Assembly: GCA_038244115.1 (NCBI GenBank)
Contig: JBBRTU010000001.1
Span: forward strand, 150,632-214,631
Length of the DNA stretch: 64,000 nucleotides
Source: Burkholderiales bacterium
GTDB lineage: Bacteria > Pseudomonadota > Gammaproteobacteria > Burkholderiales > JBBRTU01
Direction of reading: 5' to 3'
Positions 11,647 through 32,013 of the stretch are shown one piece after another. The stretch's first letter is position 1; each line of letters begins with the position of its first letter. The translations under genes were made by a program, and so were the position numbers. The notes under the pieces are model-generated. The model was not told the origin of the DNA. It saw nothing but the letters and a program-made list of their open reading frames with translations, and searched no databases.

Positions 11647-11664
11647 CTGGCACGCAAATTGCTA
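11647..11664 (+). promoter_or_regulatory. Sigma-54 promoter of the nirB operon
   Basis: CTGGCACGCAAATTGCTA equals TGGCAC-N5-TTGC with the correct -24/-12 spacing. It lies about 50 nt upstream of the nirB ATG. Confidence 0.7.
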
Positions 11665-11711: not shown

Positions 11712-14138
11712 ATGAAAAGAATGAAGCTGGTGATGATCGGCAACGGTATGGCCGGGGTGCGCACGCTGGAGGAAGTGTTGAAACTTTCCCCCGAGCTTTA
11801 CGACATCACCGTGTTCGGCGCCGAACCCTACGCCAACTACAACCGCATCATGTTGAGTCCGGTGCTGTGCGGCGAGCAGAGCATTAAGGACATCATGTTG
11901 AACGACGTGGATTGGTATGCGGAGAACGGCATTCAACTGCACCTCAACAAAAAAATTATCAAGATCGATCGTCGTGCGCGCAAGGTTTTCGCCGAGGATG
12001 GCACGCAAGCAGCGTATGACCGGCTGATTATGGCTACCGGCTCCAACCCGGTCATCTTGCCTATTCCCGGTGCGAATCTAAAAGGCGTGGTGAGCTTCCG
12101 TGACATTCACGATGTGGATGCCATGGTCGAAGCTTCCGGTAAATTCAAACACGCTGTCGTGATCGGTGGTGGGCTGCTAGGGCTTGAAGCAGCAAACGGT
12201 CTCAAAGCGCGCGGTATGGAAGTAAGCGTGGTGCACCTTTCCCCGTGGTTGATGGAGCGGCAATTGGATGAAACTGCCGCGCGCATGTTGCAGAAAAATC
12301 TGGAAGCGCGCGGACTAAATTTCCTGTTGCAAAAACAGACGGCGGAATTGGTCGGCAATGATAATCGTGTTGTTGCAGTGAAGTTTGCCGATGGCGAGGA
12401 AATCAAGGCTGACCTGGTGGTGATGGCAGTCGGAATTCGCCCTAATACCGCACTGGCCGAATCAGCCGGCATTCATTGTAGCCGCGGCATTGTGGTGAAC
12501 GACACCATGCAGACTTACGATCCGCGCATCTACGCGGTGGGTGAATGCGTCAATCATCGCGGCATGGCATATGGATTGGTTGCACCCTTGTTCGAGATGG
12601 CCAAAGTATGCGCCAATCATCTGGCAGAAATGGGCATCGGTCGCTACGTCGGCTCGGCAGTTTCCACCAAGCTGAAAGTAACCGGTATCGACTTGTTCTC
12701 TGCCGGCGATTTCCAGGGCGGCGAAGGCACCGAGGAAATTGTGCTGCACGACGCGGCAGGCGGCATCTACAAAAAATTACTCGTGAAAGGCGACCGCCTG
12801 TCCGGGGCGGTGCTCTATGGCGATACCACCAACGGTTCCTGGTATTTCCAGTTACTGCGCGAAGGACGCAGCATCACAGAAATCCGCGACCAGCTTCTGT
12901 TCGGTCAGAACAACCTGGGCAATACCGGTCATCAAGGACAAATTCGCGCCGCAGATATGCCAGACGATATGGAAGTGTGCGGCTGCAACGGTGTATGCAA
13001 GGGTGCCATCGTCAAGGGCATAAAAGAAAAGGGTCTGTTCACCTTGGACGACGTGCGCAAGCACACCAAGGCATCATCCTCCTGCGGCTCCTGCACAGGT
13101 CTGGTGGAGCAGATACTTGCCTCCACCTTGGGTGGCGATTACTCCGCCTCGCCTGCCGTGAAGCCGATGTGCAGCTGCACCGAGTACACGCACGAGGAAG
13201 TGCGTAAGACCATACGCGAACAAAAACTTTTGTCCATTCCGGCAGTGATGAAATTTATGGAATGGCGCACGGCAGATGGTTGCCCAACCTGCCGCCCGGC
13301 GCTTAACTACTACCTGATTTCTACTTGGCCAACAGAGGCCATCGACGACCCACAGTCGCGCTTCATCAACGAGCGCGCCCACGGCAACATCCAGAAGGAT
13401 GGCACCTTCTCTGTGATACCCCGCATGTGGGGCGGCACTACTACGGCTGCCGATCTGCGCCGCATCGCCGATGTAGCAGACAAATACCAGGTGCCGATGA
13501 TTCGCGTCACCGGTGGACAGCGCATCGACCTGTTCGGCATAAAAAAAGAAGACCTGCCGAAAGTATGGGCCGACCTTGATATGCCGTCTGGCCACGCCTA
13601 CGGCAAGGCATTGCGCACGGTAAAAACCTGCATCGGCACCGAGTTCTGCCGCTTCGGCACACAGGATTCTACCGGGATGGGCATCGCCCTGGAGAAGGCG
13701 CTGTGGAAAATGTGGTCGCCGCACAAGGTCAAGCTGGCTGTATCCGGCTGCCCGCGCAACTGCGCCGAAGCAGCAATCAAGGACGTGGGCATCATCGGCG
13801 TCGATTCCGGCTGGGAAATTTATGTTGGCGGCAATGGCGGCATCAAAACCGAAGTGGCGCAATTCCTGATCAAGGTAAAAACAGCAGAAGAGGTGCTCGA
13901 ATATAGTGGCGCATTTCTCCAGCTATACCGTGAAGAAGCACGCTATCTGGACCGCACCGTGCACTGGCTGCAACGCGTCGGACTCGATTATGTGAAGCAG
14001 AAAATGGTGGAGGATGCAGACAACCGCAAAGCCCTGTACGCACGACTGCGCCTGGCGCTGGATGCCCAGAAAGACCCGTGGAAAGAGCGTGCCCAGGAAG
14101 GCGTCGCTAAACATGAGTTCGAAACCGTCAACATTTAG
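11712..14138 (+). CDS. nirB: Assimilatory nitrite reductase [NAD(P)H] large subunit
   Basis: 808 aa with an N-terminal FAD/NAD fold (VMIGNGMAG), BFD-like 2Fe-2S cysteines and a sirohaem/4Fe-4S domain (CxxxxxC...C...C). Confidence 0.95.
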   Translation: MKRMKLVMIGNGMAGVRTLEEVLKLSPELYDITVFGAEPYANYNRIMLSPVLCGEQSIKDIMLNDVDWYAENGIQLHLNKKIIKIDRRARKVFAEDGTQAAYDRLIMATGSNPVILPIPGANLKGVVSFRDIHDVDAMVEASGKFKHAVVIGGGLLGLEAANGLKARGMEVSVVHLSPWLMERQLDETAARMLQKNLEARGLNFLLQKQTAELVGNDNRVVAVKFADGEEIKADLVVMAVGIRPNTALAESAGIHCSRGIVVNDTMQTYDPRIYAVGECVNHRGMAYGLVAPLFEMAKVCANHLAEMGIGRYVGSAVSTKLKVTGIDLFSAGDFQGGEGTEEIVLHDAAGGIYKKLLVKGDRLSGAVLYGDTTNGSWYFQLLREGRSITEIRDQLLFGQNNLGNTGHQGQIRAADMPDDMEVCGCNGVCKGAIVKGIKEKGLFTLDDVRKHTKASSSCGSCTGLVEQILASTLGGDYSASPAVKPMCSCTEYTHEEVRKTIREQKLLSIPAVMKFMEWRTADGCPTCRPALNYYLISTWPTEAIDDPQSRFINERAHGNIQKDGTFSVIPRMWGGTTTAADLRRIADVADKYQVPMIRVTGGQRIDLFGIKKEDLPKVWADLDMPSGHAYGKALRTVKTCIGTEFCRFGTQDSTGMGIALEKALWKMWSPHKVKLAVSGCPRNCAEAAIKDVGIIGVDSGWEIYVGGNGGIKTEVAQFLIKVKTAEEVLEYSGAFLQLYREEARYLDRTVHWLQRVGLDYVKQKMVEDADNRKALYARLRLALDAQKDPWKERAQEGVAKHEFETVNI

Positions 14139-14147
14139 GAAATCACC

Positions 14148-16328
14148 ATGCTGTTCGGACGAAGCAAAAAAAACCCGATCAAGATTGCCGACAAGGGTGT
14201 GGTCGAGTGGAAATACACCACCTGCGGTTATTGCTCCACGGGCTGTTCCATCGAAGTCGGCCTGGATGCAAGCGGCCGTGGGGTGGCCGCGCGCGGCGTG
14301 GCAGATGCGCCAGTTAATCAGGGCAAGTTGTGCATTAAAGGCATCTTCGAATACGAGCTGTTCAACTCCGCCAACCGAGGTAAAACACCCTTGCTGCGCG
14401 ACAAAACCTATCGACCATTTCGTGAAGTAAGCTGGGACAAGGCACTGGATTTCAGCGCCAGTGAAATCCAGCGTATCCAGCAACAATATGGACGCGACAG
14501 CTTCGCCATCGTTTCCACCGGACAGATATTGACCGAGGAATTCTATACCTTGGGCAAACTTGCGCGCGGCGTGATCGGCACCAACAACTACGACGGCAAC
14601 ACCACGCTGTGCATGTCCTCGGCGGTGTCCGGCTACAAGCGCTCTTTCGGCAGCGACGGCCCGCCCGGATGCTACGATGATTTCGACCACACCGAATGCC
14701 TGATGGCGTTCGGCTCCAACCTGCCGGAGCAGCACCCGATTATTTACTGGCGCCTCAAGATGGCGTTGGAAAAGCGCAGCTTCCCGGTGATCGTGGTGGA
14801 CCCGCGCGTAACCATGCTCGCGCAGATGGCGGATATCCATCTGCCGATTACGCCCGGCACAGACCTGGTGCTGTTGAATGCAATGGCGCACGTCATCCTC
14901 AAGGAAGGCCTGGCCAAGCAAGACTATATCGGCGCCCACACGACAGGCTTCGATGCGTTCAGTGAACTGGTAGCGCAGTACGACCCGGTGATGGCCGCGA
15001 AAATTTGCGGTATCGACGAGGACACGATCCGCCACGTTGCGCGCGTCTATGCGAACGCCGGCGCTGCCATGAGCATCTGGACCATGGGCATCAACCAAAG
15101 CACGCACGGCTCCGATGGCGTAGCGGCCATCAACAATCTGAACCTGATCACCGGTAATATCGGCAAACCAGGCGGCACCTCGCTTTCCATCACCGGCCAG
15201 TGCAATGCCATGGGCACACGCGAATGGTCGTCCTGTTCGGGCCTGCCGGGTTACCGCTCGCTGGAAAAAGAAAAAGACCGGCAGGAAATCGCCGACTATT
15301 GGGGTATCGACCCGGAATTTTTTCCCAAACAGCGCGGCATGTTCATGACCGACATTCTGCCCGCCATTGAAACCGGGCAGATCAAAGGGCTGTGGCTGGT
15401 TGCCACCAACCCGATGACGTCCATGCCCAATACCCCGCGCATTCGCAGAACGTTGGAGAAGCTGGAGTTCCTCGTGGTGCAGGATGCTTACTCCGACGTA
15501 GAGACTAATCAATATGCCCACGTCTATCTTCCCGCCGCACTGTGGGGCGAGAAAGAAGGCGTATTCACCAACACCGAGCGTCGCGTCAATCTGGTGCGCA
15601 AGGTCATGGAACCGCACGGCGACGCCAAGGCCGATTTGTGGATTTTCAACCAGCTTGCAAAAAGGTTTGAGCAGGGGCGCAAGATCCACTTTCCGGAACA
15701 GCCTGCTGAAGTGTTCGACGAAATGCGCGAACTGTCGCGTGGCCGCATGCTGGACTACTCCGGCATGACGCATGACAAGATCGAAGCGCAGCGTGGATTG
15801 CAATGGCCGTGCAGCGATGGTGCGGAAACCGGTTCTCCCCGCCTGTATACCGATGGCGTATTTCAGCACGCGGATGGAAAAGCGAAATTGCTTCCGCTGC
15901 CGTTCATCGACAACAACGAGCGACCTGATGAGGACTATCCGTTCTGGCTCAACTCTGGTCGCGTGGTCGAGCATTTCCACACGCGCACGCGCACCGGCAA
16001 GATCGGCAACATGAACAAGTTCAGCCCGACGCCGTACATGGAGATGAATCCGGACGCCGCGAAAAAATTGGGCATCACGCACATGGGCTACGCGCGCCTG
16101 ATCTCGCGCCGTGGCGATGGCGTGGTAATGGTGCAATTGACCCAGCGCGTGCCGCCCAACATGGTGTTTATCCCGTTTCATTTTCATGAATGCGTCAATC
16201 GCCTGACGCTTGGCCTGCTTGACCCGCATTCACGTCAACCGGCTTTCAAGCAGTGTGCAGTCAAGATCGAGCCAGCAGCGTGTCAGCAATCGGCAGCCGT
16301 GGTGAATGCCGATTCACGGAGTTATTAA
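14148..16328 (+). CDS. nasA: Nas-type molybdopterin oxidoreductase (assimilatory nitrate reductase catalytic subunit), no Tat signal
   Basis: 726 aa with an N-terminal 4Fe-4S motif C-G-Y-C-S-T-G-C and MopB nitrate-reductase-like core motifs. The N-terminus MLFGRSKKNPIK has no twin-arginine motif. Confidence 0.88.
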   Translation: MLFGRSKKNPIKIADKGVVEWKYTTCGYCSTGCSIEVGLDASGRGVAARGVADAPVNQGKLCIKGIFEYELFNSANRGKTPLLRDKTYRPFREVSWDKALDFSASEIQRIQQQYGRDSFAIVSTGQILTEEFYTLGKLARGVIGTNNYDGNTTLCMSSAVSGYKRSFGSDGPPGCYDDFDHTECLMAFGSNLPEQHPIIYWRLKMALEKRSFPVIVVDPRVTMLAQMADIHLPITPGTDLVLLNAMAHVILKEGLAKQDYIGAHTTGFDAFSELVAQYDPVMAAKICGIDEDTIRHVARVYANAGAAMSIWTMGINQSTHGSDGVAAINNLNLITGNIGKPGGTSLSITGQCNAMGTREWSSCSGLPGYRSLEKEKDRQEIADYWGIDPEFFPKQRGMFMTDILPAIETGQIKGLWLVATNPMTSMPNTPRIRRTLEKLEFLVVQDAYSDVETNQYAHVYLPAALWGEKEGVFTNTERRVNLVRKVMEPHGDAKADLWIFNQLAKRFEQGRKIHFPEQPAEVFDEMRELSRGRMLDYSGMTHDKIEAQRGLQWPCSDGAETGSPRLYTDGVFQHADGKAKLLPLPFIDNNERPDEDYPFWLNSGRVVEHFHTRTRTGKIGNMNKFSPTPYMEMNPDAAKKLGITHMGYARLISRRGDGVVMVQLTQRVPPNMVFIPFHFHECVNRLTLGLLDPHSRQPAFKQCAVKIEPAACQQSAAVVNADSRSY

Positions 16329-16354
16329 AAAACATGGGGTCGGACAAGCACTAG

Positions 16355-16387
16355 ACCCGAAACGCTAAACCCGAAACTCGAAACCGG
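16355..16387. repeat. CCCGAAAC-type short repeat cluster
   Basis: ACCCGAAACGCTAAACCCGAAACTCGAAACCGG in the nasA-downstream gap. Same family as 19927-20019. Confidence 0.6.
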
Positions 16388-16399
16388 ATTTCATACGCT

Positions 16400-18241
16400 A
16401 TGTTTAAAGTACGCAACAACGAACCTCAGTACGCGCTCCTCGCACCATCTGGTGCCTTGGAAACCAATCAGCACGGCAAGCAGATCAGGCTGGTGGATGC
16501 TAACCACCCGCTCGCCGGGCAGAGCCTGAACATCAACAATGATGCGGGTATCAGCACGAACCCTGACCGCTACAAGCAGCATGGCTTTCACTTCACCGCC
16601 GACAACTGTATCGGCTGCCATGCCTGCGAAGCAGCGTGCAGCGAGAAAAACAATTTGCCCGCACATATCAGCTTCCGCTCGGTGGGTTACGTAGAAGGCG
16701 GCACTTACCCTGATTTCAAGCGCGTCAATATTTCCATGGCGTGCAACCACTGCGACGACCCGGTTTGCCTGAAAGGCTGCCCGACCCGCGCCTATACGAA
16801 ATTTGCCGAATACGGCGCGGTGTTACAGGATCCGGATATTTGCTTCGGCTGCGGCTACTGCACCTGGGTATGCCCGTATAATGCGCCGCAACTCGACCCG
16901 GTCAAGGGCGAGGTGTCCAAATGCAACATGTGCGTCGATAGACTTGAAGTAGGTTTGAAACCAGCTTGCGTAGCGGCATGCCTGGCTGGCGCGCTGGACT
17001 TTGGCGTAGTCGAAACCACACCCGAAAATCGTGAGCAGACGAAGCTCAGCATTCCAGGCTTTCCCACGCCAGAAATCACCCACCCTAATATCCGCTTCCA
17101 GCAAGTGAAAAGCTTGCCGCGCGAAATGCACCGCACCGACAGCATGCCGCTGGTCTACGTCAGGAAAGACCAGCAGACGAAAACGGAATACCAGTCGCAA
17201 GTCGCCGTCAGTCAGGGAAAGGTAGAGTGGAACCTCAACAAACTGCGTTCACGCGAAGATCCGCTGGTGATTTTCACCCTGATTTCACAAGCAGTGATTG
17301 GCGCATTTCTGGCCTTGTTCCTTGGGCCGCTGCTGGGCCTGTCAGCGCTTGCGCCGGATGCGCATCCAACCACGTATGCAATATTGCTGTTGAGTTTGCT
17401 GGGCGCAGAGACCTTTGCGCTGGGCTTGTCCACCTCGCACCTGGGCAAACCGCATCGTTTCTATCGCGCCTTCAACAACCTGCGCTATTCGCCGGTAAGC
17501 CGCGAAGTGGCGGCGCTGGCGCTGTTCTACAACGCGCTGGGCGGTTATGCATTGCTTACGATTTTCCCGCAGTGGTTTAGCTGGTTACCACAGGGATGGG
17601 TGCCAGGCCTGCACATGCTGTGCGGCTGGGCGGGAGTGATTTTCGGGCCGTTGGCTTTGTACGCCATGCAACGCATTTACCGCATTCCAGCACGGCCATT
17701 CTGGAATCACTGGCAAGTGTTGACGTCCTTTTTCGGCAGCATGTTGACCTTGGGAGCACTGGTGGTTGCCATAGTGTATGCGGCTGTCTTGCATGCGCAA
17801 GGGCAGCCGTTCGCCGGATTGCTGTCGGCGCTGACCTTGCCCATTGAACTTGGGTTGATTGTGGAAGGCTTGGGGCTGGTCGCACATGCGCGTTATCTCC
17901 GCGAAAGTGGCAGCGAAGCAGCAGCTGCGCACCAGGCACAACGCACCACCTTCGGTAAAACCTATATTGCGCGGATCGGCGGAATGGTTGTCGCCATCGC
18001 AATGGTCGTCTATCTCGGCACATCGCTGCTTGATGGCACTGCCGGTCTGTGGGTCTGGTCGATCGTGGCGGCGTTGATTGTGGCGACTGCTCTGGTTGGG
18101 CGCGCGCTGTTCTACGTGCTGGTTATTCCCACCACCATGCCCGGCGCATTCTTCTGGCGCAATCGCGGCTTTGAGGAACACGCCCGCGAAACGGGGCTGG
18201 CCAATATGCCGCAGGTTGGGGTGCTGCCGCATGTTCATTGA
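16400..18241 (+). CDS. Fusion of a 4x[4Fe-4S] ferredoxin (DmsB-like) and a DmsC/NrfD-like polytopic membrane anchor
   Basis: 613 aa. Four Cys clusters are present (CIGCHACEAAC, CNHCDDPVCLKGC, CFGCGYCTWVC, CNMCVDRL...CVAAC), followed by about 8 predicted TM helices. Start codon is uncertain because no clear RBS is visible. Confidence 0.85.
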   Translation: MFKVRNNEPQYALLAPSGALETNQHGKQIRLVDANHPLAGQSLNINNDAGISTNPDRYKQHGFHFTADNCIGCHACEAACSEKNNLPAHISFRSVGYVEGGTYPDFKRVNISMACNHCDDPVCLKGCPTRAYTKFAEYGAVLQDPDICFGCGYCTWVCPYNAPQLDPVKGEVSKCNMCVDRLEVGLKPACVAACLAGALDFGVVETTPENREQTKLSIPGFPTPEITHPNIRFQQVKSLPREMHRTDSMPLVYVRKDQQTKTEYQSQVAVSQGKVEWNLNKLRSREDPLVIFTLISQAVIGAFLALFLGPLLGLSALAPDAHPTTYAILLLSLLGAETFALGLSTSHLGKPHRFYRAFNNLRYSPVSREVAALALFYNALGGYALLTIFPQWFSWLPQGWVPGLHMLCGWAGVIFGPLALYAMQRIYRIPARPFWNHWQVLTSFFGSMLTLGALVVAIVYAAVLHAQGQPFAGLLSALTLPIELGLIVEGLGLVAHARYLRESGSEAAAAHQAQRTTFGKTYIARIGGMVVAIAMVVYLGTSLLDGTAGLWVWSIVAALIVATALVGRALFYVLVIPTTMPGAFFWRNRGFEEHARETGLANMPQVGVLPHVH

Positions 18242-18258
18242 TTTTATGAAACATAACT

Positions 18259-18350
18259 GGACGCAGATGAACGCAGATATGCGCAGATAAAAACAAGAAG
18301 TCGATTGATGGAATTTAAGTATCTGCGTTAATCGGCTTTTATCTGCGTCC
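18259..18350. repeat. GCAGATAAAA-type palindromic repeat element
   Basis: Left arm GGACGCAGATGAACGCAGATATGCGCAGATAAAAAC and right arm GTATCTGCGTTAATCGGCTTTTATCTGCGTCC. A related copy sits at 38980-39103 in opposite orientation. Confidence 0.7.
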
Positions 18351-18397
18351 AATAGCCATTCTTATGAATGCGATAACAATTTTTCTGGAGTACAAAA

Positions 18398-18715
18398 ATG
18401 GGTAAATGGCTAAAGACTTGCATCGTTGAAGACATCCCGCGTCTTGGCGCACGCGTGGTGCGTCATGGTGACGAAGACATTGCGCTGTTCCGCACCGCGC
18501 AGGATAAGGTGTTCGCCCTGCGCGACAAGTGCCCGCACAAAGGCGGACAACTTTCTCAGGGCATCGTGTTTGATGAAAAGGTTTCATGCCCAATGCATGG
18601 CTGGCAGCTTTATCTGGAGTCGGGCGAAGCGGTAGCGCCTGACGAAGGCTGCGCACGCCGCTTTCCAGTTAAGGTAGAAGGCGGCATGGTATTTCTCCAA
18701 GTGGAGTCCATATGA
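18398..18715 (+). CDS. nirD: Nitrite reductase small subunit (Rieske-like)
   Basis: 105 aa with CPHKGGQLSQG...CPMHGW motifs. Overlaps narK by 4 bp. Confidence 0.92.
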   Translation: MGKWLKTCIVEDIPRLGARVVRHGDEDIALFRTAQDKVFALRDKCPHKGGQLSQGIVFDEKVSCPMHGWQLYLESGEAVAPDEGCARRFPVKVEGGMVFLQVESI

Positions 18716-19923
18716 ATAAAAGTTTTTGGCAAGCAGGTCATACCCCTACCTTGTTTGCAGCGTTTTTTTATTTCGATCTGAGTTTCATGGTGTGGGTGCT
18801 GCTTGGACCATTGGGGCCGCAGATTGCTGGCGATCTGCATCTGACCGCAGCGCAGAAGGGTTTAATGGTCGCCACGCCCATGCTGGCGGGTGCCGTTTTC
18901 CGCTTGATCATGGGCATACTGGTTGACCACTTGAAGCCGAAGAAAGCCGGCGCCATCGGCCAGCTGGTAGTGATGGCTGCATTGGCCTGGGCCTGGCTCA
19001 GCGGCATCGACAGTTATCAGCAAATTTTGGTGCTGGCTATATTTCTCGGCGTCGCGGGTTCTGCCTTTGCCGTGGCGCTGCCTTTAGCTTCGCGCTGGTA
19101 TCCGCCGGAGCATCAGGGTAAAGCCTTGGGCATTGCCGGTGCTGGCAATTCCGGCACGGTGTTGGCGGCCCTGTTTGCGCCGGGTTTAGCCATTGCCTAT
19201 GGATGGAATAACGTGTTCGGTTTGGCGCTGATTCCGCTGGCGATTGCCTTCCTGGTGTACGCCTTCATGGCCAAGGACAGTCCGGAGTGTCCACCTGCCA
19301 AATCGTTGGGACAATATCTGGCGGTACTGAAAGACAAGGATGCCTGGTGGTTCATGTTTTTCTACAGCGTCACCTTCGGCGGCTTCTCGGGCCTCGCATC
19401 CTCGCTCACCATTTATTTTCACGATCAGTATGGACTCACCCCGGTCGTCGCCGGTTACTTCACCGCAGCCTGCGTGTTCGCCGGTTCGCTGGTGCGTCCA
19501 CTGGGCGGTGCGCTGGCAGACAGGGTAGGCGGCATTCGCACGCTGTTGACCATGTACACCTGTGCTGCACTATTCCTGGTTGGCGTAAGTTTCAGCTTTT
19601 CATCGGTTTGGGTCACTCTGGCGATATTCGTGGGTGCCATGCTATCGCTGGGCCTGGGCAACGGCGCCGTATTCCAGTTGGTGCCACAACGCTTCCGCAA
19701 GGAAATTGGCGTGATGACCGGGCTAGTGGGTATGGCTGGCGGCATCGGCGGTTTCTATCTGGCATCCAGCCTGGGCTATTCCAAACAAATAAGCGGTAGC
19801 TACCAGAGCGGCTTCCTGATCTTCGCCGCCCTGGCCGTGCTGGCCATGATCGGACTGTCCAGTGTCAAGACACGCTGGCGCACTACCTGGGGCGCGGCTC
19901 ACTTGAGCGCTGCAAAGGTTTGA
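18712..19923 (+). CDS. narK: MFS nitrate/nitrite transporter
   Basis: 403 aa with 12 TM helices and NNP-family glycine-rich signatures (GIAGAGNSG, GMAGGIGGF). Confidence 0.92.
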   Translation: MNKSFWQAGHTPTLFAAFFYFDLSFMVWVLLGPLGPQIAGDLHLTAAQKGLMVATPMLAGAVFRLIMGILVDHLKPKKAGAIGQLVVMAALAWAWLSGIDSYQQILVLAIFLGVAGSAFAVALPLASRWYPPEHQGKALGIAGAGNSGTVLAALFAPGLAIAYGWNNVFGLALIPLAIAFLVYAFMAKDSPECPPAKSLGQYLAVLKDKDAWWFMFFYSVTFGGFSGLASSLTIYFHDQYGLTPVVAGYFTAACVFAGSLVRPLGGALADRVGGIRTLLTMYTCAALFLVGVSFSFSSVWVTLAIFVGAMLSLGLGNGAVFQLVPQRFRKEIGVMTGLVGMAGGIGGFYLASSLGYSKQISGSYQSGFLIFAALAVLAMIGLSSVKTRWRTTWGAAHLSAAKV

Positions 19924-19926
19924 TGC

Positions 19927-20019
19927 TCGGTTTCGAGTTGCGGGTTACGCGTTTCGAGTTCAATGTATCGGGCTATGAAGCATCCGAAACGCGTAACCCG
20001 AAACCCGTAACTCGAAACT
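19927..20019. repeat. CGAAAC-type long imperfect palindrome (possible terminator/REP)
   Basis: GGGTTACGCGTTTCG and CGAAACGCGTAACCC form perfect 15-nt inverted arms, flanked by further GTTTCGAG/CTCGAAAC units. It lies directly after the narK stop. Confidence 0.65.
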
Positions 20020-20029
20020 AGAATTTTCA

Positions 20030-21718
20030 ATGCCTCTCCAAATAAATATCGGTACTGCCACCGCACTCGGTTCGCGTGAGCGCAACGAGGATTTCTGTGG
20101 TGCTGTCACGCCCGAAGGCAGCGAGCTTGCCAGCAAGGGGGCGCTGCTAGCCATCTCCGATGGCGTGGGCGGCAGCGGGGGCGGACGTGAGGCGGCAGAA
20201 GCGGCGGTACGCGGCGTTCTGGCCGACTACTATGCCACGCCGGAAACGTGGGAAATTCCTCACGCGCTGGAAAAAATAATTTCCTCCATCAATAGCTGGT
20301 TACATGCACAGTCAGGCATGCAACGTGTGTACGCTGGTATGGCAGCGACGTTATCCGTGCTGGTGTTGCGCGGTCAGCGCTATGTGTTGGCGCATGTGGG
20401 GGATAGCCGCATCTATCGGCTGCGCGGGGAAAGTTTTACGCAACTGACCGCCGACCATGTTTGGGACAGGCCGGAAATGTCTCATGTGTTGAAGCGCGCG
20501 GTGGGGTTGGATGCGCACCTGGCGGTGGATTATTCGGATGGCCAATTAGCCGTCGGCGACGTGTTTTTGCTGGCGACAGATGGCGTGTGGGAACCGCTCG
20601 GACAACGCACCCTGCACGAAACACTGGTACTGCATCAAGACCCGCAATGTGCCGCAGATGCCCTGGTGAAACAAGCCATCACGCAGGGCGGGCAGGATAA
20701 CGCGACCGCTGTTGTGGTGTGCGTCGAGCAATTAGCAGACGAGGCGATGCAGGATCTGCTGGTTGAGGGACGCGATCTGCCGGTGCCGCCGCGCCTCAAA
20801 ATCGGCCAGCAATTGGATGGCTTCGAAGTGCTCGCGCAGATACATGAATCCCGCGCCACCCTACTATACAAAGTGCGCGATCCAGCCAACAGCCAGACGC
20901 TGGTATTGAAAACCCTGCCGCCCGCGCTCAAGGATGACGCGGAGGCCATGTCTGCCCTGCTGGCTGAAGAGTGGCTCGCCAAGCGGGTGGTGTCGCATTA
21001 CTTTCCGCAGGTTGTGCCGTTTGCGCCAGGCCAGCGTAGTTGTCTGTACTACGCCATGACTTGGCATGAGGGTGAAACACTGCAACAGAAACTCGATACC
21101 GCATATCGCTTTCCGGTTACGGAAACTGCCCAGCTCGGCATTCGTCTCATCAAGGGACTCTCCGCGCTGCATCAGCTGAACGTAGTACACCGCGACATCA
21201 AGCCCGCCAACCTGCATCTGGGTAGCGATAGCAAACTGCGCATACTCGACTTGGGTGTTGCCCTCAATCCGCTCGCCGATCAAGCCAGCGGCAACCCTGG
21301 TACGCCAAGCTACATGGCGCCTGAATTGTTTCTGAATGAGCAAGCCTCCACGCAGAGCGACCTGTATGCCGCTGGCGTAACCTTGTACCACTTGCTGACG
21401 CGTAAGTATCCCTACGGCGAAATCGAACCGTTCCAGCATCCACGTTTTGGTGAACCTGTCCCACCCACGCGCTACCGCCCCGACGTGCCTCAATGGCTGG
21501 AAAATATTCTGTTCAAGGCAATCGCACGTGACAAAAATATCCGCTTCGAAACTGCTGAAGAATTTTTGCTGGCACTGGAACGCGGTGAACAACATTCGCT
21601 CCTGCCACCCCGCCCCACGCCGCTGGCTGAACGCGACCCCTTGACGCAGTGGCAAAGTGTCGCTGTCATTTCATTATTGGTAAACCTTCTTCTGTTGTAT
21701 CTATTTTTCGTCAGCTAG
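20030..21718 (+). CDS. Bifunctional PP2C phosphatase / Ser-Thr protein kinase with C-terminal TM anchor
   Basis: 562 aa. The N-terminal PP2C motifs are RERNEDF and DGVGG...DNATAVVV. The C-terminal Hanks kinase motifs are HRDIKPANL and GTPSYMAPE. The last ~25 aa are hydrophobic. Confidence 0.9.
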   Translation: MPLQINIGTATALGSRERNEDFCGAVTPEGSELASKGALLAISDGVGGSGGGREAAEAAVRGVLADYYATPETWEIPHALEKIISSINSWLHAQSGMQRVYAGMAATLSVLVLRGQRYVLAHVGDSRIYRLRGESFTQLTADHVWDRPEMSHVLKRAVGLDAHLAVDYSDGQLAVGDVFLLATDGVWEPLGQRTLHETLVLHQDPQCAADALVKQAITQGGQDNATAVVVCVEQLADEAMQDLLVEGRDLPVPPRLKIGQQLDGFEVLAQIHESRATLLYKVRDPANSQTLVLKTLPPALKDDAEAMSALLAEEWLAKRVVSHYFPQVVPFAPGQRSCLYYAMTWHEGETLQQKLDTAYRFPVTETAQLGIRLIKGLSALHQLNVVHRDIKPANLHLGSDSKLRILDLGVALNPLADQASGNPGTPSYMAPELFLNEQASTQSDLYAAGVTLYHLLTRKYPYGEIEPFQHPRFGEPVPPTRYRPDVPQWLENILFKAIARDKNIRFETAEEFLLALERGEQHSLLPPRPTPLAERDPLTQWQSVAVISLLVNLLLLYLFFVS

Positions 21719-22623: not shown

Positions 22624-23877
22624 TCATCCAACCTTATGTCCTCCAGCCTGCCAATGGATAAACAACCGAGGGTAAACATCCTTCATCTTGGCTAGCCATT
22701 CCGCGCTGCGCTGATGACGCTGCGACAGCGTTTTATATTTCCGCCTGGCCCATTTCTCAAGCTTTCGATCGATATATTGACCGAGCTCGTCCATCGCCTT
22801 TTTGTAGAATGCCCCATAGTAGTTCCACCATCCGCGTACCGTCGGATTGCATTGCTGTGCCAGTTCGGCAAGCTTCGCCGATGTCCGATGCTGTAGCTTC
22901 CACCCCCACACTGTCTGCCGCATCCGCTTCAGCGCATCCTTGCTCACGCCGGGCAGGAAGTTGGTAAACACCCTGCCATGTTTGCTCAGTGCCCGCCTTG
23001 GCCGAAACGTAAAACCAAGGAAGGTAAATTGCACTTGCGGGTAGGCTTGTCGGCGGCTGCCGTCTTTGCAATATACGATCTTCGATTTCTCCGGATGCAT
23101 CGTCAATCCGCATTCCTCCAGCCGTGCTGCGATGGATTGCATCACGTCTTGCGCTTGCTTCAAACTGCGGCAGTGAACCACCGCATCATCGGCATAACGG
23201 GCAAAGGGACACTGCGGGTAGGTGCGCTGCATCCAGCAGTCGAACGCATAATGCATGAACAGGTTCATCAAGATCGGACTGACCACTCCCCCTTGCGGGG
23301 TGCCGCGTTCCCGCAGCAATCGAGTGCCGTCTTTTGCCTCGAACGGCGCAGTCAGCCACCGTTCGATATACAGCAAAATCCAGTCTTCGCTGATGTGGCT
23401 GCGTACCGCTTTCATCAGGAGCGCGTGATCGATGTTGTCGAAAGCGCCCTTGATGTCAAATTCAACCACCCAGTCGTATCGCCAGCACCGTTCTCTGGTG
23501 ACGGCGACCGCCTGTTTCGCCGATTTCCCCGGCCGATATCCGTATGAGTCCGGATGAAACATCGGGTCGAGTTTCGGTTCGATGAGAAGTTTGACTACGG
23601 TCTGCGCAATCCGATCCGAAACAGTGGGTATCCCCAGCTTTCTGAAGCCGCCCGTGGCCTTCGGAATTTCCACTTGCTTGACCGGCGGCGGGATGTACGA
23701 TCCCGAAGACAGCCGGTTCCATAGCTTGTACAAATTCTTCGACAGGTTCTGCTCAAACATGATGATGGTTTCATCATCAATACCGGCAGCACCGCGGTTG
23801 GCTTTGACTTGCTGGTAGGCTTCCCACACTGCGCGTTTGGCAATGCTATAAGGTTTTGCTGGTTTCACGCCGCTCAT
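22624..23877 (-). CDS. Group II intron reverse transcriptase/maturase (no endonuclease domain)
   Basis: 417 aa with RT blocks including the YADD box (ARYADDAVVHC) and a maturase X domain (WWNYYG...). Confidence 0.95.
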   Translation of the reverse strand: MSGVKPAKPYSIAKRAVWEAYQQVKANRGAAGIDDETIIMFEQNLSKNLYKLWNRLSSGSYIPPPVKQVEIPKATGGFRKLGIPTVSDRIAQTVVKLLIEPKLDPMFHPDSYGYRPGKSAKQAVAVTRERCWRYDWVVEFDIKGAFDNIDHALLMKAVRSHISEDWILLYIERWLTAPFEAKDGTRLLRERGTPQGGVVSPILMNLFMHYAFDCWMQRTYPQCPFARYADDAVVHCRSLKQAQDVMQSIAARLEECGLTMHPEKSKIVYCKDGSRRQAYPQVQFTFLGFTFRPRRALSKHGRVFTNFLPGVSKDALKRMRQTVWGWKLQHRTSAKLAELAQQCNPTVRGWWNYYGAFYKKAMDELGQYIDRKLEKWARRKYKTLSQRHQRSAEWLAKMKDVYPRLFIHWQAGGHKVG

Positions 23878-28065: not shown

Positions 28066-28854
28066 CTAAGCCGCCCGCAACTGACGCCGGTACAGGAAAT
28101 CCAGCACCGCGCTGCGATATTCGTGATACTTCGAATCATTAGCCAGCGCCAAGCGGTCGCGCGGGCGTTCCAGCTTTACTTCCAGCACTTCGCCGATGGT
28201 TGCCGCTGGGCCGTTGGTCATCATCACGATCTTGTCGGACAGCAACACTGCCTCGTCTACGTCGTGCGTAACCATGATCACGGTGCTGTGCGTATCCTGC
28301 GCGATCTTCATCAGCTCGTCCTGCAGGTGGGCGCGAGTCAGCGCATCGAGCGCACCGAATGGTTCGTCCAGCAACAACACTTTTGGTTGCATGCATAGCG
28401 CGCGGGCGATGCCAACACGCTGCTTCATGCCGCCGGAAATTTCATGCGGATATTTGGCTTCTGCATGCGTCAGCCCAACCAGGCTAAGCGCGTCATGCGT
28501 GCGTTTTACCATACTGGATTTGGTTTCCTTGGCAGCGAATACACGCTCGACGGCCAGGTAAACATTATCAAAACAGGTGAGCCAGGGCAGCAGTGAATGG
28601 TTCTGGAATACCACCGCACGGTCTGGGCCAGGGCCGGCAATTTCCTTGTCTGCGCAGAGCATAATGCCCGAGCTAGGTGTAGTGAGCCCCGCCACCAGAT
28701 TGAGCAGCGTGGACTTGCCGCAACCTGAGTGACCGATCAACGAAACGAACTCGCCCTGGCGGATGTTGAGGTTGATATCACGCAACGCGACGAACGGGCC
28801 TTTCTTGGTTTGAAAGGTCATTTGCACGTTTTCGATTTGCACATATTTTTCCAT
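28066..28854 (-). CDS. nrtD: ABC transporter ATP-binding protein (nitrate/sulfonate/bicarbonate family)
   Basis: 262 aa with Walker A GHSGCGKST, signature ISGGMKQR and Walker B VLLLDEP. Confidence 0.92.
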   Translation of the reverse strand: MEKYVQIENVQMTFQTKKGPFVALRDINLNIRQGEFVSLIGHSGCGKSTLLNLVAGLTTPSSGIMLCADKEIAGPGPDRAVVFQNHSLLPWLTCFDNVYLAVERVFAAKETKSSMVKRTHDALSLVGLTHAEAKYPHEISGGMKQRVGIARALCMQPKVLLLDEPFGALDALTRAHLQDELMKIAQDTHSTVIMVTHDVDEAVLLSDKIVMMTNGPAATIGEVLEVKLERPRDRLALANDSKYHEYRSAVLDFLYRRQLRAA

Positions 28855-28871
28855 GAGAACACTCCTTTTCT

Positions 28872-28940
28872 ACCACGGGGATCACGGGGGACACGGGGTA
28901 AAGAATCTGCATTTCCCCGTGCTCCCCGTGTGCCCCGTGG
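28872..28940. repeat. CCACGGGG-type compound palindrome inside the nrtB-nrtD gap
   Basis: CCACGGGG-ATCACGGGG-GACACGGGG, then a 20-nt loop, then CCCCGTG-CTCCCCGTG-TGCCCCGTGG. A second copy lies at 57112-57229. Confidence 0.85.
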
Positions 28941-28948
28941 TTAATCAA

Positions 28949-29851
28949 TCATTCGTAACTAAACCGTTTAGCCAGCGACACCAGCGCCATTTCCAGCAAC
29001 AGTCCGACAATGCCGACGATAAAAATCGCGATGATGATGTGTTCGACATTCAGGTTGTTCCACTCGTCCCATACCCAGAAGCCGATGCCGACGCCGCCGG
29101 TGAGCATTTCAGCCGCGACGATCACCAGCCAGGCCACGCCAATGGACAGGCGCACACCGGTGAGCATGTAGGGCAGCACGGCGGGGAATAAAATTTTGGT
29201 GAAGATTTTCCACTCGGACAGGTTCAACACTTTAGCCACGTTCATGTAATCCTGCGGCACGCGACTGACACCCACGGAAGTGTTAATGATCATCGGCCAG
29301 ATACTGGAAATGAAGATTACCCAGATTGCCGCCGGGTTCGCCGCCTTGAACACCAACAGACCAATCGGCAACCAGGCCAATGGCGACACCGGGCGCAGCA
29401 GGCTGATGATGGGCGATGTCATGGCGTTGAGAAATTTGAACCGGCCGATCATGAAGCCAAGCGGAATGCCGATCGCCGCTGCCATGCCGAAGCCGATGCT
29501 GACACGTTGCAGCGAGTTGAGAATGTTCCAGCCGATGCCCTGATCATTGGGGCTTTTAACATAGAACGGGTCGCTGAACAGTTGCACGGCAGAGTGCCAG
29601 GTCTTGACCGGGCCGGGCAGGTTGGGGCTGGTTTGCGACACAATCGCCCATATGCTGATAAACAGCGCCAGACCAAGAACCGGCGGTAACAGCCAGAGCA
29701 AAATATCCTTGCCCATGCCGCCCACAGAACGTCCTGGAACGATAGGCTGTTCAGCCGTTTTCAAGACGGGCTTAACAGCAAGCGGTGCAGGAGGAACGAC
29801 GCTTTTCGCTTCCATGATGTCATCTTCATTTATGAGAATAGCTGTAGTCAT
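28949..29851 (-). CDS. nrtB: ABC transporter permease (NrtB/CmpB family)
   Basis: 300 aa with BPD-transporter TM pattern, located between nrtA and nrtD. Confidence 0.92.
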   Translation of the reverse strand: MTTAILINEDDIMEAKSVVPPAPLAVKPVLKTAEQPIVPGRSVGGMGKDILLWLLPPVLGLALFISIWAIVSQTSPNLPGPVKTWHSAVQLFSDPFYVKSPNDQGIGWNILNSLQRVSIGFGMAAAIGIPLGFMIGRFKFLNAMTSPIISLLRPVSPLAWLPIGLLVFKAANPAAIWVIFISSIWPMIINTSVGVSRVPQDYMNVAKVLNLSEWKIFTKILFPAVLPYMLTGVRLSIGVAWLVIVAAEMLTGGVGIGFWVWDEWNNLNVEHIIIAIFIVGIVGLLLEMALVSLAKRFSYE

Positions 29852-29862
29852 GCAATGCTCCT

Positions 29863-31149
29863 TTACACTCTAACCTTGAAACTGGCGGCATAGGCCTTCG
29901 GATTTTTCCCATCCCATACCGTGCCGTCGATCAGCTTGCTACTGCGCATCACATCCTTCGGCACAGGCGTTTTGGTCATGCTGGCCGCCTGTTTGTAGAG
30001 ATCAATCTGATTTACCTTCTTGGCCACGGCCAGATAATCCGGATCTTCCTTGAGCAAGCCCCAGCGCTTGTGCTGGGTGAGGAACCACATGCCGTCGGAT
30101 AGATAAGGGAAGTTCACCGCGCCATCGCTATAAAATTTCATGTAGTTTTGATCCTGCCATTTCTTGCCGATGCCGTTGTCGTACTTACCAAGCATGCGGT
30201 CTTCGATGGAATCGAAATCGGTGTTGATGTAGGACTTGTCCTTGATGATGTCGGCCACCTTGGAACGGTTGCTCATGGTGTCGATAAACTTGGATGCGTC
30301 CAGTAAGGCGGCAATCATGGCGCGTGCAGTATTCGGGTACTTTTGCACGAATTCAGCGGTGGTGCCGAGCACTTTTTCCGGGTGATCCTGCCAAACCTCC
30401 TGCGTGGTGGCCGCAGTGAAACCGACCTTATCGCGTATGGCGCGTGCGTTCCATGGCTCACCCACACAAAAGCCGTCCATGTTACCGATGCGCATGTTGG
30501 CAATCATCTGCGGCGGCGGCACAGTAATGTTCTTTACATCAGTGAAAGGATTCACGCCATAGCTGGCCAGCCAGTAATACAGCCACATGGCATGCGTACC
30601 TGTCGGGAAGGTCTGGGCAAAAGTGTATTCGCGTGGTTCTTTCTTGATCTGCGCGGCAAGACTGACGCCATCCTTCACGCCTTTGGCATATAGCTGATTG
30701 GATAGACTGATGGCTTGGCCGTTGTGGTTGATAGCCATGAGTACCGACATATCTTTCTTCGGTCCGCCGATACCGAGTTGCACGCCATAAATCAGGCCAT
30801 ACAGTACGTGAGAGGCATCCAGTTCACCATTCACCAGTTTGTCGCGTACGCCAGCCCAGGAAGCTTCCTTGGAAGGCGTGATTTTGATGCCGTATTTTTT
30901 GTCGAAGCCCATCACCGAAGCAATTACTACCGAGGCGCAATCGGTCAGCGGAATAAAGCCGATTTTCACCTCGGTTTTTTCTGGGGCATCCGAGCCGGCT
31001 GCCCATGCGCCACTCCTTACGCCCGGCGGAACCATCGCCATCAGTGCAGCGCCACCGAGCAGTGCCGTGCTTTTCTTCAGAAAATCGCGGCGCTCGCTGT
31101 TTTCTACCAATTGATGTGTCGATTTCTTTTGATCGTGCTGCTTGTTCAT
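29863..31149 (-). CDS. nrtA: Nitrate ABC transporter substrate-binding protein with Tat signal
   Basis: 428 aa with the twin-arginine leader SERRDFLKKSTALLGGAALMA and an NrtA/CmpA-like body. Confidence 0.92.
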   Translation of the reverse strand: MNKQHDQKKSTHQLVENSERRDFLKKSTALLGGAALMAMVPPGVRSGAWAAGSDAPEKTEVKIGFIPLTDCASVVIASVMGFDKKYGIKITPSKEASWAGVRDKLVNGELDASHVLYGLIYGVQLGIGGPKKDMSVLMAINHNGQAISLSNQLYAKGVKDGVSLAAQIKKEPREYTFAQTFPTGTHAMWLYYWLASYGVNPFTDVKNITVPPPQMIANMRIGNMDGFCVGEPWNARAIRDKVGFTAATTQEVWQDHPEKVLGTTAEFVQKYPNTARAMIAALLDASKFIDTMSNRSKVADIIKDKSYINTDFDSIEDRMLGKYDNGIGKKWQDQNYMKFYSDGAVNFPYLSDGMWFLTQHKRWGLLKEDPDYLAVAKKVNQIDLYKQAASMTKTPVPKDVMRSSKLIDGTVWDGKNPKAYAASFKVRV

Positions 31150-31404: not shown

Positions 31405-31437
31405 ATGTTGCTGCAAAACGGTGCCAAATTGAATCCA

Positions 31438-32013
31438 TCAAATCAGCAGATCAGCCGCCGCAATAATGTTGCTGGCCACTTCGCCGATACGCTGGCCGCG
31501 GTCCATCGCCATTTTGCGCAATGCCTGGTACGCCTGTTCCTCATTCCAGTTGCGCTGTTTCATCAATATGCCCTTGGCACGATCGATGATTTTCCGCTCC
31601 CCAAGCCGGGCTTCTGCGTCCTCCAGGTTGTGGCGCATGGTCTGGAATTCTTTGAATCGGGCCAGTGCCACTTCCATCAGCGGCTTGACACGTTCGCTAT
31701 CCAAGCCATCCACTACATAGGCGCTCACCCCGGCGCGAATGGCGGCGCGAATCTTTCCGCGGTCGTCGTCGTGGGTGAACATCACGATGGGACACGGCTG
31801 TTCACGGCTGATCACGCAGATGTGCTCCAGCGTGTCACGGCTGGGAGAATCGGTATCGATAATGATCACGTCCGGATTAAGGCTGTCCACCTGCTTGAGC
31901 AGATCGCTGGTGGTCGAAGATTCGGCGATCACCTGATAGCCAGCGTGCTGCAAGGCTTCGCGCAGGAGCGCGGTGCGTTCGGTGGACTCATCAACGATCA
32001 TGACGCGTAACAT
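31438..32013 (-). CDS. nasT: ANTAR-domain response regulator (nitrate antiterminator)
   Basis: 191 aa with a receiver domain (VMIVDES...IIIDTD) plus a C-terminal ANTAR helix pattern (KIIDRAKGILMKQRNWNEEQAYQALRKMAMDR). Confidence 0.92.
   Translation of the reverse strand: MLRVMIVDESTERTALLREALQHAGYQVIAESSTTSDLLKQVDSLNPDVIIIDTDSPSRDTLEHICVISREQPCPIVMFTHDDDRGKIRAAIRAGVSAYVVDGLDSERVKPLMEVALARFKEFQTMRHNLEDAEARLGERKIIDRAKGILMKQRNWNEEQAYQALRKMAMDRGQRIGEVASNIIAAADLLI

Follow-up and report, generated by a model that had tools for sequence, protein, structure and literature searches.

How does a molybdoenzyme encoded among nitrate-assimilation genes obtain its electrons when its neighboring gene encodes a membrane anchor of the dimethyl sulfoxide (DMSO) reductase type? 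The question is raised by a locus of a Burkholderiales bacterium (assembly GCA_038244115.1, contig JBBRTU010000001.1, positions 150,632 to 214,631), a stretch of 64,000 nucleotides that we call the window. A first-pass annotation had described in it nirB, a molybdoenzyme of 726 amino acids (aa), a protein of 613 aa, nirD and narK, all co-directional, and we found the open reading frames (ORFs) in that order. The molybdoenzyme is called here moA and the 613-aa protein, a fusion of DmsB-type and DmsC-type modules, BC. According to textbooks, assimilatory nitrate reductases are soluble and take their electrons from ferredoxin, flavodoxin or NAD(P)H. Our sequence analysis, which covered gene order, domains, cofactor ligands, active-site type, export signals, predicted topology, synteny and a sigma-54 motif, suggests instead that moA and BC may form a two-polypeptide, membrane-bound, cytoplasm-facing quinol:nitrate oxidoreductase responsible for the first step of nitrate assimilation. 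We favor this reading, with a confidence somewhat above even, and it supports the central proposal of the first-pass annotation, that of a membrane-anchored, cytoplasm-facing and quinol-linked nitrate reductase.

The catalytic subunit and its lineage

The moA protein starts with MLFGRSKKNPIKIADKGVVEWKYTTCGYCSTGC, in which 25 residues precede the first cysteine of a [4Fe-4S] motif, C26-x2-C29-x3-C33...C62. The cluster and the missing twin-arginine motif had both been noted before. Neither a twin-arginine translocation (Tat) signal nor a Sec signal was found in the window protein or in more than 60 orthologs, which keep the N-terminus MLFGRxxKNPIK. The active-site motifs of moA (TTLC155M156SSAVSGYKRSFG, SIT349GQCNAMGTR358E and WTM313GINQ) match the C-M-[AS]-S-A and S-[IL]-T-G-Q-P-[NS]-A of NasA and NapA. 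Formate dehydrogenases have instead (selenocysteine/Cys)-His and R-G-[QH]-N-N-V-Q-G, and T349 of moA occupies the position of R333 in FdhH. All these active-site residues, including the equivalents of Nap Met308 and Arg354, were invariant in 13 orthologs.

Profile scores leave moA under the cutoff of every NCBIfam equivalog, including NasC (NF047855, 532 bits vs. cutoff 1100), NasA_Halo (NF041323, 490 vs. 1000), two NapA models (446 vs. 904 and 429 vs. 931), dmsA_ynfE (143 vs. 778) and narG (37 vs. 1084). Therefore, the protein is not filed under NasC, NasA, NapA or Fdh. Among PDB sequences the best match was FdhF of a CO2 reductase (473 bits), and NapA of D. desulfuricans scored 439. The rankings by hidden Markov models (HMMs) and by PDB match are thus ambiguous, but the active site is not, and by its residues it is of the Nas/Nap type. 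A formate dehydrogenase identity, prompted by the top HMM and PDB matches, was rejected in view of the active-site residues and the position of moA in trees.

The trees were built by neighbor-joining with 300 bootstraps. References came from annotated records of plasmids, chromids and E. coli and comprised the NasA of Klebsiella and Ralstonia, NarB of Sinorhizobium and a Paracoccus NasC ortholog, as well as actinobacterial, Bacteroidota and haloarchaeal nitrate reductases, three NapA, five FdhF/FdsA-type sequences and DmsA as outgroup. The moA clade received 100% bootstrap, and a split separating moA, Nas and Nap from Fdh and DmsA received 73-77%, with moA and Fdh grouped in 3% of the replicates. 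The first-pass annotation had named an Fdh-like placement as the outcome that would speak against it; both the motifs and this split point to Nas/Nap. On the other hand, moA fell outside the canonical proteobacterial NasA/NarB/NasC clade (100%) and outside the Nap clade (99-100%). Its place is within the Nas plus Nap radiation and outside every Nas subclade sampled. Identity was 33-40% to every reference, 30-38% to NapA sequences and 24% to E. coli DmsA. The proposed Nas lineage of moA is supported for the nitrate-reductase radiation as a whole, but not for any Nas subclade sampled, given these identities and the failed equivalog cutoffs. On sequence grounds, moA appears to be a distinct deep lineage inside this radiation.

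The NasA, NasC and NarB enzymes of Klebsiella, Paracoccus, Sinorhizobium and Ralstonia resemble moA in being cytoplasmic, Tat-less, cysteine-ligated enzymes with molybdenum bis-molybdopterin guanine dinucleotide (Mo-bisMGD) and an N-terminal [4Fe-4S] cluster. They share with it the motifs C-M-[AS]-S-A and S-I/L-T-G-Q-x-N-A-M-G-x-R-E, and their genes are likewise found with nirBD, narK or nrt genes and a PP2C/kinase gene. They differ in clade, being 33-39% identical to moA, and in their electron supply. Canonical NasA proteins (those of Ralstonia, of Comamonadaceae and the paralogs in related loci) carry a C-terminal Fer2_BFD domain with a 2Fe-2S cluster, and a Hymenobacter nitrate reductase has a fused NAD(P)H reductase in addition to the BFD domain. 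Pfam found neither module in moA, which means that the usual entry point for NADH electrons is missing and that an external donor is needed. Instead of a soluble NAD(P)H reductase, NasG, ferredoxin or flavodoxin, the partner of moA appears to be a membrane-integral fusion of a four-cluster domain with a DmsC-type anchor. Taken together, its features suggest that moA probably reduces nitrate for assimilation but is supplied with electrons in another way.

The fused partner: ligands, anchor and orientation

BC consists of a DmsB-type domain for four [4Fe-4S] clusters (approximately residues 60-205) followed by a DmsC-type anchor with eight transmembrane helices (TM1 to TM8; approximately residues 286-578), in agreement with the four cysteine clusters and about eight helices initially ascribed to it. 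The 16 cluster cysteines (C70/73/76/80, C115/118/123/127, C148/151/154/158 and C175/178/190/194) do not vary among 21 family members or among nine distant fusions. The anchor scored 71 bits with PF04976 (cutoff 22), and the best NCBIfam model for BC was DMSO_dmsB, with 160 bits against a cutoff of 214 (narH, 45 vs. 524). By tblastn, the iron-sulfur (FeS) domain is 35% identical to plasmid-borne proteins of the DmsB/YnfG type; the search for BC orthologs on plasmids returned nothing but true DmsB/DmsC or YnfGH, none of them above 35% identity. The solved relatives nearest to this domain in a profile search were FdnH, PsrB, the iron-sulfur subunit of a type II DMSO-reductase-family enzyme, ArrB and EbdB.

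Eight hydrophobic helices were evident in the hydropathy profile, and the same eight were found, with pLDDT (the confidence score of the model) above 90, in an AlphaFold2 model built with a 21-sequence alignment. A Foldseek search with the anchor returned only a weak match, to ActC of alternative complex III (E = 1e-3, TM-score ~0.5). In sequence, the membrane domain of BC aligns with E. coli DmsC across TM1-TM5. In this alignment, H347 and E369 of BC correspond to H65 and E87 of DmsC, which DmsC needs to bind and oxidize menaquinol. Neither H347 nor E369 varies in the BC family, including fusions merely 33-48% identical, and the TM2-TM3 loop (H347-A371) is invariant at 17 of its 25 positions. 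The predicted topology puts H347 and E369 where TM2 and TM3 end on the cytoplasmic side.

The orientation of BC was predicted from the distribution of lysine and arginine. In the window protein, the five cytoplasmic segments carry 4, 5, 3, 4 and 3 of these residues, a total of 19, and the four periplasmic loops carry none. The 21 family members showed the same bias, with means of 5.6 in the N-terminal flank, 5.0 in loop 2-3, 3.4 in loop 4-5, 4.0 in loop 6-7 and 3.0 in the C-terminal tail, compared with 0.0-0.1 in each of the four alternate loops. Across all relatives examined, 19-22 such residues lie on the segments that are cytoplasmic in an N-in protein and 0-3 on the other loops. No signal or Tat motif was found on BC, either in the window protein or in its orthologs. 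Because the charge is one-sided and neither protein has an export signal, BC is predicted to be N-in/C-in, which places both its FeS domain and moA on the cytoplasmic side. The first-pass annotation had singled out a periplasmic FeS domain whose partner lacks an export route as a difficulty; with the domain predicted on the cytoplasmic face, no such route is required. Furthermore, electrons cannot cross the membrane through an anchor devoid of haem, which puts the predicted quinol site on the cytoplasmic side, beside the last FeS cluster.

Seven BC orthologs (P0005, P0027, P0035, P0050, P0061, P0065 and P0090) have an extra N-terminal extension of ~45 residues that is not present in the window protein. 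Its start is conserved (ML[NK]VxVDKxGLAFI in six of the seven) and a cysteine-rich stretch (GGCGTGCGCD, SCGGGCQ) follows in six, P0090 being the exception. Source names exist for just two of the extended orthologs, which come from metagenome-assembled genomes (MAGs) of Betaproteobacteria and Rhodospirillaceae.

E. coli DmsABC shares with BC the four cysteine groups and a haem-less eight-helix anchor with the H65/E87 pair conserved. In BC, however, both modules belong to one polypeptide, with a 57-residue N-terminal extension and a linker of ~80 residues; the catalytic partner is of the cysteine-ligated, Nas-like type, not of the DmsA type; and the context is nitrogen assimilation, not anaerobic respiration. 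The orientation of DmsC has been established experimentally, with its N-terminus and DmsAB on the periplasmic side. No Tat signal is present in moA or BC, and the charge bias of BC indicates the opposite orientation.

Gene pairing, carriers and operon context

We collected 80 genome loci via BC and 80 metagenome loci via moA. In 56 of the 58 genome loci with enough sequence, moA lies directly 5' of BC, the other two carrying partial copies, and BC lies directly 3' of moA in 70 of 71 metagenome loci, often with gaps of 0-30 nt. A nirB gene was present no more than 8 kb upstream in 38 of 41 genome loci found via BC. Altogether, the arrangement recurs in more than 150 independent loci and is therefore not due to chance. 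How often the two genes occur together had been put forward as a check on their association: the pairing is near-obligate, and it is found in nirBD clusters preceded by sigma-54 motifs. The single moA locus without BC (L109) has, after a spacer of ~420 nt, a multihaem c-type cytochrome (four CxxCH) and a four-cluster FeS protein with a Tat signal, which points to a chimeric contig or to a different partner for electron transfer.

The gene directly before moA was nirD in 46 and nirB in five of 57 metagenome loci. The commonest order is thus nirB-nirD-moA-BC, and the order of the window, nirB-moA-BC-nirD, belongs to a minority (~9%) that also includes L012, L019, L058 and probably L017, whose upstream sequence is missing. 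The separation of nirB from nirD is atypical, as first remarked, but as a minority order it was ruled out as a defining trait of the system.

The BC family has thousands of members, and the best 120 matches are at least 67% identical to the window protein. Where source labels exist, they read "DMSO reductase iron-sulfur subunit" or "DmsC/YnfH family anchor" and, in one case, aspartate carbamoyltransferase. Record titles give as carriers Thiobacillaceae, Gallionellaceae, Nitrosomonadales, Acidiferrobacterales, Thiohalobacter, Ectothiorhodospiraceae, Thiotrichaceae, Chromatiales, Methylocaldum and Methylococcaceae, that is, largely families known for sulfur, iron or methane oxidizers. The closest matches to the window are betaproteobacterial, with nirB 75-77% and moA 85-86% identical to loci from Thiobacillaceae and Betaproteobacteria MAGs.

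Many more DmsB-DmsC fusions, 31-57% identical to BC, were detected among 1.84 billion representatives, and we looked up the context of seven. The fusion adjoins a three-domain Mo-enzyme of 739 aa beside a P-II gene in P0134, one of 736 aa beside NarK-like major facilitator superfamily (MFS), NirBD, Amt and P-II genes in P0164, and one of 735 aa beside an MFS gene in P0178. P0142 and P0139 lie on short contigs where the neighboring genes are cut and have no recorded domains. Two Mo-enzymes of distant fusions, those with DNA available, join the moA clade (62.6% identity, bootstrap 100%; 46.5%, 78%) and have active-site motifs identical to those of moA. Nine distant fusions (33-48% identical, P0217 excluded) keep the 16 cysteines, the His/Glu pair and the N-in charge bias. 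P0217 itself pairs with a DmsA-like enzyme without Nas motifs and probably represents another system. At the distant locus L183 the order is inverted, with BC before the Mo-enzyme, and the neighbors are genes for a NarK-like MFS protein, divergent NirBD, Amt, P-II, a phosphate-selective-type porin and GAF-PtsP (enzyme I of the nitrogen phosphotransferase system). At L185 (GCA_964489525.1), a fusion 35% identical to BC accompanies a DmsA-like enzyme of 757 aa without Nas motifs in a non-nitrogen context (ABM, SnoaL), so that fused anchors of this kind are not confined to nitrate reductases.

A small membrane protein, here called X, is encoded directly 3' of BC in 69 of 130 related loci, though not in the window. 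It has ~105-127 aa, two hydrophobic segments and the motif QRRRR..LKH.LRG.LFSWP.Y, it matched no Pfam family, and it may serve the moA-BC enzyme as an accessory subunit or in assembly. Of 52 genome loci that extend far enough beyond BC, nine have a canonical NasA just 3' of it (885-937 aa, of the Klebsiella/Ralstonia NasA clade and ending in a BFD domain with a 2Fe-2S cluster); the NasA gene of Methylocaldum (L009) precedes genes resembling NasS/NasT. Two nitrate reductases in one cluster hint at a donor-specific specialization. No second Nas-like gene was found in the 64-kb window.

In the window, six co-directional genes (nirB, moA, BC, nirD, narK and PP2C/kinase) span 11712-21718, with gaps of 9 nt between nirB and moA, 71 nt between moA and BC and 156 nt between BC and nirD, and with an overlap of 4 nt between nirD and narK (table 1). 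The nirB product contains the Pfam domains Pyr_redox_2, Fer2_BFD and NIR_SIR. A homolog of the PP2C/kinase gene adjoins narK in many related loci and is also present in a Comamonadaceae nas cluster. Together with narK, the nitrate ABC transporter genes farther downstream indicate that nitrate uptake of both the NarK type and the ABC type is encoded.

The association with sigma-54 that the first-pass annotation had suggested was borne out. The consensus 5' of nirB is the sole match without mismatch in the window, and in related loci a consensus within 260 nt 5' of nirB was perfect in 25 of 87 and had no more than one mismatch in 61 of 87, against background rates of 0.6% and 3.2%, respectively.

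Table 1. Coordinates of features in the window and in related loci (the latter with locus prefix)
Feature	Position	Strand	Evidence or remark
Sigma-54 (-24/-12) promoter consensus TGGCACGCAAATTGC	11648-11662	+	50 nt 5' of nirB ATG
nirB, NAD(P)H nitrite reductase large subunit, 808 aa	11712-14138	+	TIGR02374, 968 bits vs. cutoff 578
moA, Tat-less three-domain Mo-bisMGD enzyme, 726 aa	14148-16328	+	Molybdop_Fe4S4, Molybdopterin and Molydop_binding, all above Pfam cutoff
BC, DmsB-DmsC fusion, 613 aa	16400-18241	+	Fer4_11 (residues 112-203), DmsC PF04976 (286-574)
Long imperfect hairpin with CGCAGAT repeats, BC-nirD spacer	18258-18351	+	RNA fold of 18238-18400: dG -49.9 kcal/mol, z = -6.5
nirD, nitrite reductase small (Rieske-like) subunit, 105 aa	18398-18715	+	TIGR02378, 95 bits vs. 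cutoff 75
narK-family nitrate/nitrite MFS transporter, 403 aa	18712-19923	+	MFS_1, 155.7 bits; TIGR00886, 300.5, slightly under cutoff 311.7
Bifunctional PP2C phosphatase/Ser-Thr kinase, 562 aa	20030-21718	+	Pfam PP2C_2 and Pkinase
Group II intron reverse transcriptase/maturase ORF	22624-23877	-	RVT_1 and GIIM
Three ORFs of 534, 259 and 201 aa	24801-27191 and 31405-32010	+	No match in Pfam and NCBIfam scans
nrtA/nrtB/nrtD-like nitrate ABC transporter genes, separate transcription unit	28066-31149	-	NrtB TIGR01183, 252 vs. cutoff 209; NrtC/D TIGR01184, 347 vs. 292; binding protein NMT1_2, 346 bits
NB-ARC and TPR protein, 835 aa	32200-34707	-	STAND-type NTPase
Canonical NasA near BC	L009:10217-12949, L010:9865-12528, L034:7437-10250, others
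Protein X	L019:9847-10194, L012:6630-6950, L058:5929-6228, L041:9844-10227, 65 other loci
moA locus without BC	L109:3449-5831
Distant version, BC then Mo-enzyme	L183:32-13131
Fusion with DmsA-like enzyme	L185:2100-5955

The spacer between BC and nirD contains a hairpin with three direct and two inverted copies of CGCAGAT(A). It occupies the place where relatives of the same gene order encode protein X, and it could be a deletion scar, an element resembling repetitive extragenic palindromes (REP) or an element for mRNA processing or stability. A long ORF on the minus strand (13923-16229) that overlaps moA was regarded as an artefact of the mechanical ORF call. The stretch from the kinase gene to the nitrate ABC transporter genes includes an ORF of a group II intron, which suggests a mobile-element insertion inside the nitrate-assimilation region. 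The three ORFs without family matches flank the intron and the NrtABD genes, and the adjoining NB-ARC and TPR protein is possibly a defense or signaling gene.

Proposed electron route and its alternatives

From these data we infer complex formation, nitrate as substrate, quinol as donor, the lack of energy conservation and a physiological rationale as follows. Nitrate imported by NarK or NrtABD would be reduced to nitrite at moA, and the nitrite to ammonium by NirBD with NAD(P)H. For the first reduction, the DmsC-type site (H347, E369), where TM2/TM3 meet the cytoplasm, would oxidize quinol. The four [4Fe-4S] clusters in the DmsB-type part of BC would relay the electrons to FS0, the N-terminal [4Fe-4S] cluster of moA, and from there they would reach the Mo-bisMGD, whose ligand would be Cys155. 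The operon would be read from the sigma-54 promoter, which would fit nitrogen control. Since the anchor is haem-less and the quinol site is predicted on the side of the FeS domain, we expect a non-electrogenic reaction, in contrast to that of NarGHI; no proton-motive redox loop is expected because quinol would release its protons in the same compartment where nitrate reduction takes them up. The benefit would be that NAD(P)H or ferredoxin is spared, a saving that would matter where NADH is made by reverse electron flow. Such sparing is plausible, as it fits the carriers named in record titles.

The first-pass annotation had called the enzyme functionally NarGHI-like. This comparison may stand for the flow of electrons from quinol to nitrate on the cytoplasmic side: like NarGHI, moA-BC would be membrane-bound, with a cytoplasmic active site and electrons drawn from the quinone pool. 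It is not expected to extend to energy conservation through a proton-translocating redox loop, as the DmsC-type anchor has no haem and the predicted quinol site is cytoplasmic. Moreover, there is no family-level homology, and neither the ORF list nor Pfam revealed a NarI-like gene, the source of the dihaem anchor, in the moA-BC operon. Operons of the nar type are under anaerobic and nitrate control, whereas the moA-BC operon has a sigma-54 motif and nitrogen-assimilation neighbors. The SoeABC sulfite:quinone oxidoreductase of sulfur oxidizers is closer in layout, as it is Tat-less, with catalytic and FeS parts facing the cytoplasm and a haem-less polytopic anchor that interacts with quinone. 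It differs in catalytic clade, in substrate, in the direction of the electrons (from sulfite to quinone) and in having a separate anchor polypeptide of the NrfD/PsrC type. In Nap with NapGH, a Nap/Nas-lineage subunit is also wired to quinol via FeS proteins, but NapA is Tat-exported and periplasmic, the NapG/NapH architecture is unrelated to a DmsB-DmsC fusion, and nap clusters carry genes for NapD and NapB/C; no nap accessory gene (napD, napB/C, napGH) was found in the moA-BC operon by ORF list or Pfam. By analogy, moA-BC would resemble an inverted DmsABC, or a SoeABC working in the reductive direction, more than NarGHI.

Several points weigh against a quinol-linked assimilatory enzyme. Our literature search found no enzymatic, genetic or expression data on any moA-BC member. 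The AlphaFold2 model of the FeS domain is unreliable (pLDDT below 50) and provides no geometry from the FeS clusters to the quinol site, the site itself is deduced from two residues aligned to E. coli DmsC, and the topology is a prediction based on the positive-inside rule and on absent signals. The top NCBIfam score of moA was with Fdh-alpha (TIGR01591, 602 bits vs. cutoff 666), deep neighbor-joining support for its placement is moderate, and the trees lacked the characterized NasC of B. subtilis and cyanobacterial NarB. Finally, a canonical NasA with a BFD domain is also present in three of 29 genome loci and ten of 41 metagenome loci that are wide on both sides, corresponding to 10-24% of the clusters. 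The two enzymes can therefore coexist, and genomes could hold nasA elsewhere, so that moA-BC need not be the assimilatory enzyme in every carrier.

These points leave room for other interpretations. The DmsC-like domain of a true nitrate reductase might be a tether or scaffold, the donor being NADH via NirB/NirD, ferredoxin or another membrane complex, and not quinol. The moA and BC genes do sit among nirB and nirD, and in Paracoccus-type systems proteins of the NirB/NirD type feed NasC; protein X, encoded after BC in about half of the loci, could also belong to another electron route, and the case for quinol comes from the two aligned residues. We consider this unlikely, given that the H347-A371 stretch is nearly invariant, that the His/Glu pair persists in fusions of 33-48% identity, that moA lacks the BFD domain through which canonical NasA receives NADH electrons, and that an eight-helix domain conserved at 60-80% identity seems excessive for a mere tether. 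It is likewise improbable that the main role of the enzyme is dissimilatory or redox-balancing, with cytoplasmic nitrate reduction acting as a quinol sink that feeds ammonification by NirBD, in the manner of dissimilatory nitrate reduction to ammonium. Sulfur-oxidizer families (Thiotrichaceae, Chromatiales) are indeed among the carriers, NirBD has been proposed to ammonify nitrite in giant sulfur bacteria, and in clusters with a canonical NasA a second assimilatory enzyme would be redundant. Nevertheless, a conserved sigma-54 consensus precedes the operon, the neighbors are P-II, Amt, NasS/NasT-like regulators and NrtABD transporters, and a haem-less anchor with its quinol site on the cytoplasmic side offers no evident means of conserving energy. 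One role does not preclude the other.

We hold it to be very improbable that moA has a different substrate (formate, chlorate, selenate or some other oxyanion) and that its gene just accompanies those for nitrite reductase. The leading Fdh-alpha and FdhF scores would favor it, and Nap/Nas-type enzymes are somewhat promiscuous. However, the catalytic His and Arg of formate dehydrogenases are replaced by the Met and Thr of Nas/Nap, the Met308 and Arg354 equivalents do not vary, moA hardly ever grouped with Fdh in the bootstraps, and the context of nitrate transport and nitrite reduction is consistent across deep divergence. A complex facing the periplasm and exported via an unrecognized route has the least to recommend it and seems exceedingly improbable, even though DmsC of E. 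coli, the closest characterized anchor, has that orientation. In no ortholog did moA or BC show a Tat or Sec signal, an N-out protein would expose 19-22 Lys/Arg to the periplasm and leave the cytoplasmic side with none, and nitrite formed in the periplasm would need re-import for NirBD. We rejected the periplasmic orientation on the absent signals and the charge bias.

The favored quinol-linked, cytoplasm-facing assembly is built from known component families, but their combination seems to be new. We found no description of the moA-BC pairing in the searchable full-text literature, a scope that leaves out subscription journals. In a phylogeny of the DMSO reductase family, no member of the Nas/Nap/Aio/cytoplasmic-Fdh clade was associated with canonical four-cluster or membrane-anchor subunits (PMC7331816). 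If our reading is true, this generalization would be contradicted for Nas/Nap, to whose lineage the four-cluster/anchor module would have been recruited, and a quinol-linked, membrane-bound Nas would add a third class of electron donor.

There are also consequences for annotation. At present, moA is annotated as "molybdopterin oxidoreductase" and BC as "DmsC/YnfH anchor" or "DMSO reductase iron-sulfur subunit". With BC labeled as a DMSO reductase subunit, counts of dmsB/dmsC would mis-assign it to DMSO respiration, and nasA alone may serve to gauge the potential for nitrate assimilation.

More tentatively, and with slightly less than even confidence, we suggest that, after Nas, Nap and Nar, moA-BC could represent a fourth class of prokaryotic nitrate reductases by architecture, in which a Nas-lineage subunit would be permanently coupled to a cytoplasm-facing DmsB-DmsC module and would use electrons of the quinone pool for assimilation. 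Such a class would be widespread, comprising thousands of sequences from Beta- and Gammaproteobacteria and distant versions elsewhere, and concentrated in sulfur-, iron- and methane-oxidizing lineages, where it would spare NAD(P)H that must otherwise come from reverse electron transport. If so, the estimated reductant cost of growth on nitrate would change for chemolithoautotrophs and methanotrophs.

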